This document shows, piece by piece, positions 9,287 to 47,206 of a stretch of DNA of 64,000 nt. Under the pieces are notes generated by a model. It ran no database searches. It saw nothing but the letters and a program-made list of their open reading frames with translations, and was not told the DNA's origin. This DNA is from Nitrosopumilus sp. (GTDB lineage: Archaea; Thermoproteota; Nitrososphaeria; Nitrososphaerales; Nitrosopumilaceae): contig OZ252243.1 in the NCBI GenBank assembly GCA_965249555.1, positions 1,280,001-1,344,000 of the forward strand, read 5' to 3'. Every line of letters starts with the position of its first letter. Position 1 is the first letter of the stretch. Made by a program: the position numbers and the translations under genes.

Positions 9287-9360
9287 AGCTTCGAACGGGA
9301 TCTGAACCCGTGACCTTTACATTACCAATGTAACGCTCTACCAGACTGAGCTACCGAAGC
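9287..9360 (-). tRNA. tRNA-Thr(GGT)
   Basis: reverse complement folds to a cloverleaf: GCTTCGG/TCGAAGC acceptor, anticodon arm TTACA-TTGGTAA-TGTAA, T-loop TTCAGAT. Confidence 0.95.
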
Positions 9361-14708: not shown

Positions 14709-14783
14709 TGGGCCCGATGTGATTCGAACACATGACCTTTCGATTATCAGTCGAACGCTCCAGCCAAGCTGAGCTACGAGCCC
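14709..14783 (-). tRNA. tRNA-Ile(GAT)
   Basis: GGGCTCG/CGGGCCC acceptor, TTCGA-CTGATAA-TCGAA anticodon arm, TTCGAAT T-loop. Confidence 0.96.
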
Positions 14784-16901: not shown

Positions 16902-16975
16902 GGGCCGGTAGTATAGCCTGGTAGTATACCCGCCTTGCACGCGGGGGGTCACGGATTCGAATTCCGTCCGGTCCA
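16902..16975 (+). tRNA. tRNA-Ala(TGC)
   Basis: GGGCCGG/CCGGTCC acceptor with G3:U70, CCCGC-CTTGCAC-GCGGG anticodon arm. Confidence 0.96.
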
Positions 16976-22720: not shown

Positions 22721-24109
22721 TTGTCACAAGTTTTTCATGAAATTGAAAAAAAAATTATCATCTCTCTAAAAGATAATCCAAGACAAACTCCTGAGACCCT
22801 TGAAAAATATACAAAACTTTCACCAGATCAGATCAGACGAGGAATTGAGTGGCTTAAACTAAAAGATCTGGCAATTGTCAATGAATCTAAAACAAGCATC
22901 ATTAGTTTAGGTAAGAATGGCATTGAATCTTTTCAAAAAGGACTCCCTGAGAGACGATTACTGGATTTGCTAAAGAGTGGTCCTAAAAAATTATCTGATC
23001 TACAAAAAGAACTTGGACCTATTTTTGGACCCGCAATAGGATTGTCTAGAAAAAATAATTGGGTCGAGGCATCCTCTGATCAAATTTTGCTTAAAAATTC
23101 TCCTTCAGAACTTCCTGGTGAAAAAACTCTCAAACAAATTGGAAACAACAAATTATCTAAAGATAAAACTGATAAAAATGATTTATCAGAACTTTTGAAA
23201 AGACCTGATTTTATAATTGAAGATGTAGTTAAGACCAAAGAAATTTCTTTAACTGATTCTGCAAAATCAATAAAACTTTCAGAGTCTTCTGGGGAAATAG
23301 ATGTAGAAGCAAAAGTACCTGAAGTTTTTGCTGCAAGAACTCATCCATTAAAAGACACTATTGATGAAATTCGTGAAATATTCGTTACATTGGGTTTCTC
23401 AGAAATCAATGGAACCATGTCTCAGTCAAGCTTTTGGAATTTTGATGCTCTATTTACTCCACAAGATCATCCTGCAAGAGAATTACAGGATACCTTTTAT
23501 CTAGATGGAATTTCTGCTAAAAAAATTGCAACACCAGAACAAATTAGAAAAGTTTCTGAATCCCACAAAAAGAATTGGAGATATCATTGGGATATCAATG
23601 AAGCAAGAAAAATGGTTCTAAGAACTCATACTACTTGTGTTACAATTAAACATCTAGCTGAAACCAAGCCTGATGAAGCAAGAGTTTTTTCATTAGGACG
23701 TGTATTTAGAAATGAAAAGGTTAGCTACAAACATCTTGTAGAATTTAATCAAATTGAAGGAGTTGTTGTAGGAAAAGATGCTAATCTGAGAAATTTAATG
23801 GGAATTCAAAGAGAATTCTACAAACGAATTGGAATTACAAAAATAAAATTCTGGCCAACATTTTTCCCATATACAGAACCATCACTACAAACTATGGTGT
23901 ATAATGAAAGATTAGGAAAATGGGTTGAACTATTTGGAATGGGAATTTTCAGACCAGAAGTAACTAAACCTCTTGGAATCACTAAACCTGTTTTGGCATG
24001 GGGAGGCGGTATTGAACGAATTGCAATGCTAAAGTATGGTCTTGATGATGTGAGAGAATTTTACAATAACAACTTGAGTTGGTTAAGGAGTGCTAGAAAA
24101 TGCCAGTAG
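22721..24109 (+). CDS. pheS: phenylalanyl-tRNA synthetase alpha subunit
   Basis: WNFDALF.PQDHPAR, LRTHTT, GRVFRNE, FPYTEPS, GIERIAM. Confidence 0.97.
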   Translation: MSQVFHEIEKKIIISLKDNPRQTPETLEKYTKLSPDQIRRGIEWLKLKDLAIVNESKTSIISLGKNGIESFQKGLPERRLLDLLKSGPKKLSDLQKELGPIFGPAIGLSRKNNWVEASSDQILLKNSPSELPGEKTLKQIGNNKLSKDKTDKNDLSELLKRPDFIIEDVVKTKEISLTDSAKSIKLSESSGEIDVEAKVPEVFAARTHPLKDTIDEIREIFVTLGFSEINGTMSQSSFWNFDALFTPQDHPARELQDTFYLDGISAKKIATPEQIRKVSESHKKNWRYHWDINEARKMVLRTHTTCVTIKHLAETKPDEARVFSLGRVFRNEKVSYKHLVEFNQIEGVVVGKDANLRNLMGIQREFYKRIGITKIKFWPTFFPYTEPSLQTMVYNERLGKWVELFGMGIFRPEVTKPLGITKPVLAWGGGIERIAMLKYGLDDVREFYNNNLSWLRSARKCQ

Positions 24110-25725
24110 TTGAATTATCATATACGCGCCTTCAAAAATTAGTTGGCAAAGTTACAAAAAAGCAAATTTCTGATTCATTACCATTTCTTGGATTAGATAT
24201 TGAATCAGAAAACAAAGACCTAATCCGAATTGAATACAGCCCAAACAGACCTGATTATTCAACTGATTTTGGAATTGCACTAGGATTGCAAGGATTACTT
24301 GGAATCAAAACTGGAGCAATTAAACTGAATGTCAAAAAATCAAACAAGTATAAAATTTCTGTAAAATCTAAAGTATCAAAAATTCGTCCTTTTGTAACTG
24401 GAATTGTTGCAACAAATGGAAAAATTGATGATAGAACAATTAAACAATTTATGACAATGCAAGAAGATCTTCATTTTGGAATAGGAAGAAAGAGAAAAAA
24501 ATCATCAATAGGTATCCATGACTTGGACACAATTTCATTTCCTTTAGTTTACACAACCACAAATAGAAGTCACAAATTCATTCCATTAACCTCTAAAAAA
24601 GAACTTTTAATTTCTGAGATTCTTAAAGATACTGATGTGGGAAAAGATTATGGTTCTATACTAGGGAATTCACCCAAAGTACCTCTAATTTTAGATGCAA
24701 ATCAAAAAACAGTTTCTTTTCCTCCAATAATTAACGCAGCAATAACTACTATTACAACTAAAACAAAAAATCTCTTTGTTGAGGTAACTGGAATCAATAA
24801 AGAAGATGCTGAAGATATGCTTTCAGTTGTCGCAACTATTTTACAAAGCGCAGGTTTTACTTTAGAATCAGTTCAAATATCTGGTGCAAAAAACTCTTCA
24901 CCAAAACTTGCACAAAAGAAAATATCTGTTAACGCTTCTTTGATCAATCAAACCCTTGGTTTGAATCTTAATGCTTCAAAGATTATTTCATCATTGAAAA
25001 AATCTAGACTAGATGCATCAACTAAAGGTAAAAATATCATTTGTATAATTCCTGCATATAGATTTGATATTTTCGGATCAATGGATTTGGTAGAAGAAGT
25101 TGCTTTAGGATATGGAATCCAAAATCTTGAACCTACCTTATCCCCTTCTCAAACACTTGGCCAAAAGCACCCCATCTCAATTAGTTTGCAATCAATTTCT
25201 TCTATGATGACTGGATTGGGCTATATGGAAGCTCTAAATTCCAGCTTAACTAGCAAACGAATTCTTTATGATAATACAAAAAGAGATTCATCAAAAATTG
25301 TCTCAGTTTTAGATTCCAAAAGTCTCGAACATACTATTCTTAGAGATTCGCTATTTCCTGGATTAATTGATAGTTTGGCAAAAAATATTCATGAATCGTA
25401 TCCTCAAAAATTATTTGAGATAGGAACTATTTTTAATAAAACAAGTTCTGTAACTGAAGAAACTCATCTTTGTGCAGCAAGCTCTCATAAAGATGCAAAC
25501 TTTAGCGAAATGAAATCTGTTTTACAATCTATTATTCAATCCATATTTGGAAAAACTTGCCAAACTAAAACTACCACTCATCCAACTTTTGAAAATGGGC
25601 ATGTTGCAAACATTACTGTTGACGGAAAAGTTATCGGAATTATTGGTGAAATTGGTAAATCTACTAAAGACAACTTTAAGCTTAGAGAACCGATAGTTTC
25701 CTTTGAAATAAAACTACCTGGTTAA
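24100..25725 (+). CDS. pheT: phenylalanyl-tRNA synthetase beta subunit
   Basis: NRPD, QEDLH..GRKRKK.SIGIHD, SFPPIIN, DLVEEVA.GYG. Confidence 0.96.
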   Translation: MPVVELSYTRLQKLVGKVTKKQISDSLPFLGLDIESENKDLIRIEYSPNRPDYSTDFGIALGLQGLLGIKTGAIKLNVKKSNKYKISVKSKVSKIRPFVTGIVATNGKIDDRTIKQFMTMQEDLHFGIGRKRKKSSIGIHDLDTISFPLVYTTTNRSHKFIPLTSKKELLISEILKDTDVGKDYGSILGNSPKVPLILDANQKTVSFPPIINAAITTITTKTKNLFVEVTGINKEDAEDMLSVVATILQSAGFTLESVQISGAKNSSPKLAQKKISVNASLINQTLGLNLNASKIISSLKKSRLDASTKGKNIICIIPAYRFDIFGSMDLVEEVALGYGIQNLEPTLSPSQTLGQKHPISISLQSISSMMTGLGYMEALNSSLTSKRILYDNTKRDSSKIVSVLDSKSLEHTILRDSLFPGLIDSLAKNIHESYPQKLFEIGTIFNKTSSVTEETHLCAASSHKDANFSEMKSVLQSIIQSIFGKTCQTKTTTHPTFENGHVANITVDGKVIGIIGEIGKSTKDNFKLREPIVSFEIKLPG

Positions 25726-25750
25726 TATTTGACCAAGTAGACCATTGTAT

Positions 25751-25919
25751 GCCCTAAGAGCAACCATGCAGACGGATTGGGATGATGTCGATCGTAATGA
25801 TACCAATGATTTCTAATTCACCCAGGCATGGCACATTAAGGGCGCCCCGGTTTCAGAACCCAAGGAGGTTTTGGCTAAAATACCAATGATCTTGTGCGAG
25901 TCAGAACCGGGGAACAATC
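25751..25919 (+). ncRNA. putative double-hairpin box H/ACA guide RNA
   Basis: two GC-rich hairpins, each with an internal loop, a K-turn-like GA/AAUGA motif and an ACA one nt after the lower stem (25833-25835, 25914-25916); TTAATAT about 22 nt upstream. Confidence 0.65.
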
Positions 25920-25975
25920 TCATTTTCAAGAATTAAAAAACAATAAAACATCTATCTGTAATACAAAAAATTGAA

Positions 25976-26395
25976 ATGGTGAATTATTGGTTAGCAAAAC
26001 AAGAACCTAGTGGACCACGAGGATATAATTTTGAACAACTAAAAAAAGAAAAAACAACTGTCTGGGATGGAATTCATAATAATCTTGCATTAAAGCACAT
26101 GAGAGAGATGAAACCTAGTGATCTTGTTTTGTTTTATCATACAGGTGATGAACGACAAGCTATGGGGATAATGCAAGTAACTTCAAAACCATATCCTAAT
26201 CCAAAAGAAGACAATGAACGTTTTATTGTTGTAGATGTCAAGTACAAAAAAACATTGAAACGTCCAGTAACACTTGATGAAATGAAAAAAGAAAAAAAAT
26301 TCAAAGATTGGGAACTTATCCGAATTTCAAGATTGTCTTTAATGCCTGTCCCAAAGCAAATTTGGGATGTAATTTTAAAGATTTCTCAAAACTGA
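25976..26395 (+). CDS. EVE domain protein
   Basis: NYWLAKQEP, WDGIHN, DLVLFYHTG, RLSLMPV. Confidence 0.92.
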   Translation: MVNYWLAKQEPSGPRGYNFEQLKKEKTTVWDGIHNNLALKHMREMKPSDLVLFYHTGDERQAMGIMQVTSKPYPNPKEDNERFIVVDVKYKKTLKRPVTLDEMKKEKKFKDWELIRISRLSLMPVPKQIWDVILKISQN

Positions 26396-47132: not shown

Positions 47133-47206
47133 GCCTTGGTAGCTCAGCCTGGTAGAGCGAACGCCTCGTAAGCGTTAGGTCGCGGGTTCGTATCCCGTCC
47201 GAGGCT
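47133..47206 (+). tRNA. tRNA-Thr(CGT)
   Basis: GCCTTGG/CCGAGGC acceptor, AACGC-CTCGTAA-GCGTT anticodon arm. Confidence 0.95.

Follow-up and report, generated by a model that had tools for sequence, protein, structure and literature searches.

Among described archaeal guide RNAs of the box H/ACA kind, the closest to the element analysed here is sR-h45 of Haloferax volcanii. Our element occupies positions 25751–25916 on the plus strand (about 166 nucleotides, nt) of a 64,000-nt stretch of Nitrosopumilus sp. (assembly GCA_965249555.1, contig OZ252243.1, positions 1,280,001 to 1,344,000 of the forward strand), which is called the window below and whose numbering is used throughout. We consider it, with a probability of about 0.72, to be a two-hairpin archaeal box H/ACA guide small RNA (sRNA) that has its own promoter and is directed at U2586 of the peptidyl-transferase centre (PTC) and at helix 69 of 23S ribosomal RNA (rRNA; Escherichia coli numbering unless stated). 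Both sR-h45 and this sRNA have two hairpins, each with a kink-turn (K-turn) and an ANA box. In both, the 5′ hairpin is directed, here by prediction, at the U-run between helices 90 and 93 with a spacing of 15, the 3′ hairpin is directed at helix 69 with a longer spacing (17/19 in sR-h45; 17 to the top of the pocket here), and the partner proteins are the same; the likeness is drawn from the published description of sR-h45. According to the available portion of the source, the pseudouridine (Psi) made by the 5′ hairpin of sR-h45, Psi2605, corresponds to E. coli 2586 and is the third U of that same U-run (PMC7075261). The two RNAs differ in how their targets would be held. Stem-loop SL1 of sR-h45 is canonical: the first two U's are each paired with an A and ‘UA’ is left free, whereas 4–5 target bases would stay free here. 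SL2 forms its Psi in the loop, at E. coli 1915 and 1917, which lie in a UNUN that stays unpaired, whereas the invariant strand of our second hairpin can pair with 1915–1922 and points to 1921/1923. The linker between the hairpins is 56 nt long in sR-h45 but 1–2 nt here, where a helix closes around both hairpin 1 and its ACA.

In Pyrococcus abyssi numbering the U2586 site is presumably 2678, which we match to E. coli 2586 by an offset of 92, combining a published statement on the RluE/RluB/RluC sites with E. coli positions. In the available text of the paper on these guides, motifs 2 and 3 of Pyrococcus Pf7/Pab40 and Archaeoglobus Afu-4 are directed to the equivalent of P. abyssi 2678 and to helix 69 (2016), which are the two targets predicted here, in unchanged order (PMC2377435). 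The 2678 equivalent, at which motif 2 of both Pf7 and Afu4 is expected to act, is Psi in Haloarcula marismortui, Halobacterium halobium, Drosophila and mouse; the motif 2 of P. abyssi itself has moved to a different site (PMC2377435). Those guides have three hairpins and address Psi in the loop of helix 69 (PMC2377435), whereas the present sRNA has two and is predicted to address the stem. The nucleotides predicted for our hairpin 2, E. coli 1923/1921, are also those served by yeast snR84 and snR3 and their human counterparts: yeast Psi2264 and Psi2266, equivalent to 1921 and 1923, are guided by snR3 and snR84 and conserved in human, so far as the accessible part of the source goes (PMC2794176). 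These are eukaryotic small nucleolar RNAs with H and ACA boxes and no K-turn, whereas both hairpins here carry K-turns; the likeness considered is that of the target. No archaeal Psi at E. coli 1921 or 1923 was found in the available portions of the literature on archaeal guides.

Results

A conserved and covarying structure

The element is a real structured RNA. A covariance model, R1, was built from a genus alignment of 30 sequences, and a structure of 43 pairs in seven helices (an outer stem plus the lower, upper and apical stem of each hairpin) was scored. In the genus alignment, 95.4% of the cells hold standard pairs, against 25–49% after the 3′ partners are slid by 1–3 columns, and both sides change in 10 pairs, against 0–4 when slid; none of 500 shuffles reached the observed values. 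The same was seen across the family, in 26 representatives (20 from 20 different genomes, 19 of which are lower-scoring R1 matches, plus six high-scoring ones). In this alignment, which was fitted to R1 and thus favours the scored structure, 87.3% of the cells are paired (30–49% when slid) and both sides change in 34 of the 43 pairs (7–13 when slid), values that again none of 500 shuffles equalled. The minimum-free-energy fold of the single sequence reproduces the proposed stems. The features read as follows.

25751–25916 (+): whole sRNA, comprising the outer stem, hairpin 1 with its ACA and hairpin 2 with its ACA; the conserved block ends exactly at the ACA, and R1 matches it from 1 to 166
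25751–25755 (+): outer stem P0, 5′ strand GCCCT, partner of 25839–25843
25756–25763 (+): linker from the outer stem to hairpin 1, AAGAGCAA, containing AGAGCA
25764–25769 (+): hairpin 1 lower stem, 5′ strand CCATGC; covariation, for example CCATGC/GCATGG against GGCACGC/GCGTGCT
25770–25775 (+): hairpin 1 pocket, 5′ strand AGACGG, in which GACGG is complementary to 23S CCGUC (E. coli 2590–2594)
25776–25782 (+): hairpin 1 upper stem, 5′ strand ATTGGGA, 7 base pairs (bp) with 25811–25817; covariation from U-A to C-G
25783–25810 (+): hairpin 1 K-turn (U-GA at 25783–25785, AAU-GA-U at 25805–25810) and apical stem-loop; tandem GA motifs invariant
25811–25817 (+): hairpin 1 upper stem, 3′ strand TTCTAAT, paired in the genus alignment
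25818–25825 (+): hairpin 1 pocket, 3′ strand TCACCCAG (UCACCCAG), in which ACCCAG is complementary to 23S CUGGGU (E. coli 2579–2584)
25826–25831 (+): hairpin 1 lower stem, 3′ strand GCATGG, paired in the genus alignment
25833–25835 (+): internal ACA box of hairpin 1, unpaired within the junction closed by P0; ANA in 25 of the 26 family representatives
25839–25843 (+): outer stem P0, 3′ strand AGGGC, by the pairing counts in the genus and family alignments
25845–25852 (+): hairpin 2 lower stem, 5′ strand CCCCGGTT, 8 bp with 25905–25912; pairs 1–6 nearly invariant, pairs 7 and 8 covarying or broken in other genera
25853–25858 (+): hairpin 2 pocket, 5′ strand UCAGAA, purine-rich; homologues end in A-R-A-R
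25859–25864 (+): hairpin 2 upper stem, 5′ strand, 6 bp with 25891–25896; G.U, A-U, G-C and U-A exchanges
25865–25890 (+): hairpin 2 K-turn and apical loop (GA at 25865–25866, C-stem GGU/ACC, bulge AAU at 25885–25887, GA at 25888–25889, U at 25890); GA, GG/CC and AUGA conserved
25891–25896 (+): hairpin 2 upper stem, 3′ strand, paired in the genus alignment
25897–25904 (+): hairpin 2 pocket, 3′ strand CGAGUCAG, in which GAGUCAG(A) is complementary to helix 69 (U)CUGACUC (E. coli 1915–1922)
25905–25912 (+): hairpin 2 lower stem, 3′ strand AACCGGGG, paired in the genus alignment
25914–25916 (+): terminal ACA box and transcript end; 3′ ANA in all 26 family representatives; conservation ceases here

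The outer stem around the first ACA calls for particular attention. All five of its pairs show changes on both sides across the family, and at its position other families carry quite different complementary sequences of up to 9 bp; it is therefore a real helix. An earlier note on this stretch, written by a model from the DNA letters alone, had pointed to this stem as an atypical extra and had proposed a double-hairpin H/ACA-like guide RNA. Its stems, K-turn motifs and ACA boxes can all be read directly from the sequence, and so can several of its details: a first ACA 15 nt from the top of the hairpin 1 pocket (25818–25832), one identical sequence at the same place in both hairpins (ATACCAATGAT, at 25800–25810 and 25880–25890), the start of the island about 22 nt after TTAATAT (25722–25728, 22 nt ahead of G25751), a T-rich end past the second ACA (TTTT at 25923–25926), and a GC-rich island between pheT and an EVE gene, the G+C content being 0.46–0.50 against about 0.3 in the flanks. 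The 4-bp upper stem (CAAG/CTTG) that it gave for hairpin 2 had to be corrected, since homologues show one of 6 bp (25859–25864 with 25891–25896), which contains one C.U mismatch in the Nitrosopumilus sp. strain studied; with 6 bp, the hairpin 2 pocket has 6 + 8 nt, the same size as that of hairpin 1.

Within the genus the linker motif AGAGCA never varies; most of the family retains it, whereas other families do not.

Hallmarks of H/ACA guides and partner proteins

Both hairpins consist of a lower stem, an internal loop (the pocket) of 6 + 8 nt and an upper stem, with helices backed by covariation, and in both an ACA stands 1 nt past the lower stem. Tandem G.A K-turn motifs, invariant in the genus alignment, are present in each, that of hairpin 2 being of the textbook form (GA, a GGU/ACC stem, an AAU bulge, GA); in several other genera kink-loops (K-loops) replace the K-turns, and the apical part of hairpin 1 takes shorter forms. 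Counting from the pocket, the distal G.A takes the 10th position in hairpin 1 and the 8th–9th in hairpin 2, and the ACA lies 15 and 17 nt, respectively, from the pocket top. Counted to the predicted targets, the spacing in hairpin 1 is 13 to the last paired base, or 14 if U2585 stacks opposite C25819, and that in hairpin 2 is 16 for U1923 and 14 for U1921. In the available portion of the source, the archaeal norms are 15 ± 1 from ACA to target, 17–19 being tolerated when an ACA is present, and G.A at 9–10 positions from the pocket (PMC7075261).

The genome encodes the proteins that such a guide would need: Cbf5 (374 bits against a cut-off of 238), Nop10 (83 bits, cut-off 27) and L7Ae-family proteins (90.8 and 48 bits, cut-off 22), together with a Gar1-like open reading frame (ORF) that scores 28.8 bits, just below its cut-off of 29.3. 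The double-hairpin guide architecture put forward in the earlier note is thus borne out by covariation, ANA boxes, K-turns or K-loops, a promoter-like box, a transcript end past the ACA and the partner proteins, and the ACA, K-turn and pocket are all conserved in relatives.

Two genome-wide descriptor scans for further H/ACA hairpins recovered hairpin 1 and missed hairpin 2; because hairpin 2 itself was missed, the scans are uninformative on other H/ACA RNAs of the genome and were set aside. A listing of G+C islands drawn up for further H/ACA RNAs, with 303 entries, was too noisy to use.

Transcription and ends

At 26 of 30 loci in the genus, a box of the GGTTTTTAG type stands about 24–30 nt ahead of the first G of GCCC. 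In the strain studied it reads GGTTAATAT, in the same place and overlapping the stop codon of pheT, and it presumably serves as a promoter of the sRNA of the TATA/BRE type (TATA box with B recognition element).

25722–25728 (+): TATA-like putative promoter box TTAATAT, conserved at a fixed distance and overlapping the pheT stop codon
25923–25926 (+): T-run past the sRNA, a possible archaeal terminator; T-runs follow the ACA in most relatives

A search of public sequencing runs showed parts of the stretch to be present in metatranscriptomes. The contigs of two marine runs (X2 and X3, one study) are confined to 25760–25919, with nothing on the flanking genes, and summed word depths over the sRNA reach about 7,800 and 19,000 in the two runs. 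Three contigs, from the two runs, bear non-genomic A-runs directly behind 25917. These A-runs indicate a plus-strand RNA, in the environmental relatives from which the contigs come, with its 3′ end at the ACA.

In both RNA runs, contig depth is about 5–10 times higher over hairpin 2 (25840–25903) than over hairpin 1 (25760–25839), which may reflect either better conservation of hairpin 2 in environmental relatives or separate accumulation of the two hairpins. Some contigs are chimeric (25764; 25789–25912), a minus-strand copy 3′ of the hairpin 1 lower stem being joined to a plus-strand copy 3′ of its 5′ strand; such fold-back chimeras are most likely artefacts of reverse transcription. Downstream of the second ACA (25920–25960), most relatives have TTTTCAAAAACCATTAAAC in common, which when read as its reverse complement is similar to the promoter-like box of the sRNA, CAATGGTTTTTAG. 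The EVE gene may have its promoter here, or this may be a like box in the opposite orientation.

Distribution across relatives

Among 60 related genomes, blastn found the element in 32 of the 36 other genomes of the genus and in none of the 24 from other families, the aligned block always being 25753–25916 and ceasing at the second ACA. Of the 150 family genomes searched with R1, 143, representing 26 of 27 genera, gave a single copy each; this tally takes in three unpublished genomes (G137, G152 and G153), which supplied no sequence and of which the claim is independent. In the Nitrosopumilus sp. genome, no second copy was found with R1 at E ≤ 10. A search of 120 genomes sampled from the order gave R1 matches in 22/22 genomes of the own family, 7/7 of family f4, 2/2 of f6, 10/10 of f9 and 5/7 of f14, and further in 4/9 of f12, 9/21 of f15, 2/7 of f7 and 1/5 of f19; no match was found in the 22 sampled genomes of family f10. 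Not all lineages of the order have the two hairpins fused: in one genus of f9 an A+T-rich spacer keeps them about 100 nt from each other, and in f15 R1 matches hairpin 2 alone, with no hairpin 1 adjoining (f9 and f15 loci L092, L093 and L099–L103).

Predicted target of hairpin 1

The organism's own 23S rRNA has CUGGGU-UUAGA-CCGUC at 2680–2695, which alignment with the E. coli rrl gene places at E. coli 2579–2594, and the two strands of pocket 1 are exactly complementary to its ends: ACCCAG of the 3′ strand pairs with 2579–2584 and GACGG of the 5′ strand with 2590–2594, giving 6 + 5 bp. In a scan of both rRNAs that allowed offsets and free loops of 1–6 nt, this PTC site was the best match of pocket 1; it replaced a scan of strict geometry (pairing from the pocket top, with a 4-bp upper stem in hairpin 2), which gave nothing convincing. 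Of the 26 family representatives, 25 retain GACGG and 24 retain ACCCAG; among 20 representatives of the order the figure is 13 for each. A target of hairpin 1 in the PTC is credible.

Which uridine would be modified is suggested by the variation among homologues. Opposite U2585, homologues carry C, A or U, and the homologue of one genome (G243), whose 23S carries an identical target, has AACCCAG and so could pair through U2585, leaving U2586 as the first free U. Because of this pairing, and because E. coli 2586 is a known guided site, Psi at U2586 (own U2687) is favoured; U2585 (own 2686), an alternative in that it is the first unpaired U in this family, would be the less likely site. The number of free target bases is larger than usual, and more than two are allowed according to the accessible text of the source (PMC7075261).

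The earlier note had given the 23S sequence as a consensus and had predicted, from the same complementarity, Psi at U2585/U2586 with an unpaired substrate loop of 5 nt. That sequence proved exact in the organism's own 23S, and five target bases (four in one lineage) would indeed stay free; of its two uridines, U2586 gains from the G243 pairing and the known site, and U2585 loses ground.

Predicted target of hairpin 2

The sequence GAGUCAGA in the 3′ pocket strand of hairpin 2 is complementary to UCUGACUC in helix 69 (own 23S 2020–2027, E. coli 1915–1922), on the 3′ side of its loop and stem, and the next base is U1923. The match amounts to 7–8 bp, all on one side of the pocket. Its GUCAG(A) core is strongly conserved, GUCAG being found in 26/26 family and 18/20 order representatives, and UCUGACU occurs in the two rRNAs only in helix 69. 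Homologues mostly carry A or G opposite U1915 and U1921, either of which could pair with U. An assignment of hairpin 2 to the stem of helix 69 (U1923 and/or U1921; own 2028/2026) would fit this complementarity and is held tentatively, at somewhat under even odds. As to the suggestion of the earlier note that GAGTCAGA might pair with helix 69, the literal complementarity is there, and a match above chance is not.

Because ACUC occurs twice in helix 69, there is also a weaker register, in which GAGU pairs with E. coli 1913–1916 and U1917 lies at the pocket; it has 4 bp and leaves the invariant CAGA unexplained. Other sites were tried and dropped: at own large-subunit positions 2283–2295 (GACUC-U-UUUUG) the invariant CAG(A) stays unpaired, UCUGAC at 856 lacks a continuation, and relatives do not conserve the pairing that the 5′ strand of hairpin 2 could form with UCUGA in helix 69. 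A genome-wide search with the full complement of either 3′ pocket strand returned only scattered sites in unannotated sequence and helix 69 with one mismatch.

Covariation between guide and target was also sought in a genome of another family (G041), in vain, the sequence 5′ of CUUAAGG there being unlike helix 69. At this locus (L107, G041:C5:164740–164880, minus strand) the 23S directly 5′ of CUUAAGGUAGCC is not helix 69-like, which suggests an insertion or intron at helix 69 in the 23S gene.

Discussion

A mode of action of the sRNA can be proposed as follows. It would be transcribed from its own promoter, with a 3′ end right past the second ACA; L7Ae would bind the K-turn of each hairpin, and Cbf5-Nop10-Gar1 each lower stem with its ACA. 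Precursor 23S rRNA would then pair with both strands of an internal loop, presenting one uridine to the active site of Cbf5. Hairpin 1 would in this way direct Psi formation at U2586 (own U2687), less likely at U2585, with 4–5 target bases free as against the usual two. Hairpin 2 would most likely have the 3′ strand of helix 69 as its partner and act on U1923 and/or U1921, which correspond in yeast to Psi2266 and Psi2264. Structure, conservation, boxes, complementarity to the own 23S, transcript and protein genes are observations, and we infer from them protein binding, catalysis and the exact uridines.

Several results weigh against this account. The folding energy of the single sequence is unexceptional on either strand (z −1.30 and −1.22), so that the single sequence alone proves little. 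Rfam 15 at gathering thresholds gave only four tRNAs in the 64-kb window and no H/ACA family; at E ≤ 10 the island again gave no H/ACA family, its only three matches being chance-level ones to unrelated families. In the portions of the H/ACA RNA literature available, no description of a first ACA enclosed by a helix was found. The RNA contigs are assembled, come from environmental relatives in one study and owe their strand and ends to a few A-tailed contigs, and runs X9 and X11 have no contigs over the sRNA. With regard to the targets, the best match of hairpin 1 was equalled in 21 of 200 shuffled rRNA pairs under a liberal scan, which makes the complementarity alone only suggestive, and it departs from the canonical ‘UN’ in leaving five target bases (four in one lineage) and 2–3 guide bases at the pocket top free. 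The match of hairpin 2 does not rise above chance, 119 of 200 shuffles equalling it, and the 5′ pocket strand of this hairpin would add only 2 bp (UU, 1925–1926) in the U1923 model or 3–4 bp (CUCU, 1922–1925) in the U1921 model.

The last figures could also mean that the RNA is a genuine H/ACA sRNA for which one or both targets are wrong, that of hairpin 2 and possibly that of hairpin 1, the true one being another uridine in rRNA, tRNA or other RNA, or that it is an orphan or chaperone-type H/ACA RNA. The U1917 register points the same way, and so does S. islandicus sR435, which reaches eight sites through duplexes of 8–11 bp with bulges and mismatches, as stated in the accessible text of the source (PMC11077068). 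Yet both strands of pocket 1 are conserved in many families and fit one and the same 16 nt of 23S, where a known Psi site lies, one lineage (G243) extends the pairing there, and the only UCUGACU in rRNA is that of helix 69; nor is there a better site among 56 tRNAs, in which matches to CUGAC and CUGGGU lie mainly in acceptor stems or the D region. On balance, mistaken targets seem unlikely to us.

Doubt about the class of the RNA has less room. The missing Rfam match, the resemblance of AUGAUGU in hairpin 1 to a C box and the position of the first ACA inside a closed junction might speak for a different class of structured K-turn RNA, for instance a regulatory RNA bound by L7Ae or a degenerate RNA of C/D-like type, in which the ACA triplets are incidental. 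Against that, there is no D box (CUGA) near either end, an ANA follows both lower stems by 1–2 nt in 25–26 of 26 representatives, each hairpin has its lower stem, 6 + 8 nt loop, upper stem and K-turn at canonical distances, and the transcript ends at the ACA, all of which renders such a class very improbable. A cis-acting element, either the 3′ untranslated region or terminator of pheT or a leader of the EVE gene with no free-standing RNA, would account for the position of the sRNA between these two genes at almost all loci (EVE at 29/30 and 28/30). But the element has its own promoter-like box at a fixed distance, the RNA contigs extend into neither gene, other families have the hairpins separated or hairpin 2 alone, and sequence conservation ceases sharply at both ends, so that this explanation has hardly any credit with us. 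The two-hairpin H/ACA guide thus appears to be the reading that best fits the locus.

Seen against sR-h45, Pf7/Pab40 and Afu-4, the guide might go back to an ancient archaeal RNA with two sites, U2586 and helix 69, common to haloarchaea, Thermococcales and Archaeoglobus, in which hairpin 2 has been retargeted to stem uridines of helix 69 and the enclosed ACA and the free loop of 4–5 nt form a new Cbf5 guide geometry. Taken as a whole this proposal is rather doubtful. If it is true, hairpin 2 in this lineage has been retargeted to helix 69 stem uridines that are otherwise known as Psi only in eukaryotes (yeast Psi2264/2266). That distant archaeal phyla likewise join a guide for the PTC to one for helix 69 is a hint that the RNA is old.

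The kind of RNA, an archaeal H/ACA guide, is a known one, apparently not yet described for ammonia-oxidizing archaea; no literature on H/ACA RNAs of Nitrosopumilus or of these archaea was found in a search that covered sources other than subscription journals and supplementary files. The stem enclosing the first ACA and the unpaired target loop of 4–5 nt are unusual features, and they extend the rules by which targets of orphan H/ACA RNAs are predicted. Ammonia-oxidizing archaea are among the most abundant microbes of the ocean, and since R1 finds the sRNA in nearly every genome of the family, the gene can be annotated at once. It gives testable positions of rRNA Psi at two functional centres of the ribosome.

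Neighbouring genes

The sRNA lies between two protein-coding genes on the same strand, and the tRNA genes of the window are farther away.

24100–25725 (+): ORF of 541 amino acids with phenylalanyl-tRNA synthetase beta-chain domains (pheT), upstream
25976–26395 (+): ORF of 139 amino acids with an EVE domain (PUA-like fold, Pfam PF01878), downstream
9287–9360, 14709–14783, 16902–16975 and 47133–47206: four tRNA genes, the sole Rfam matches of the window

The arrangement recurs in relatives. pheT is found upstream of the sRNA at 29 of 30 loci both in the genus set and in a family-wide one. The EVE-domain gene begins about 45–60 nt 3′ of the sRNA at 29 of the 30 genus loci and at 28 of 30 further loci from the family-wide search, in which some genomes of the genus and G000 are included.

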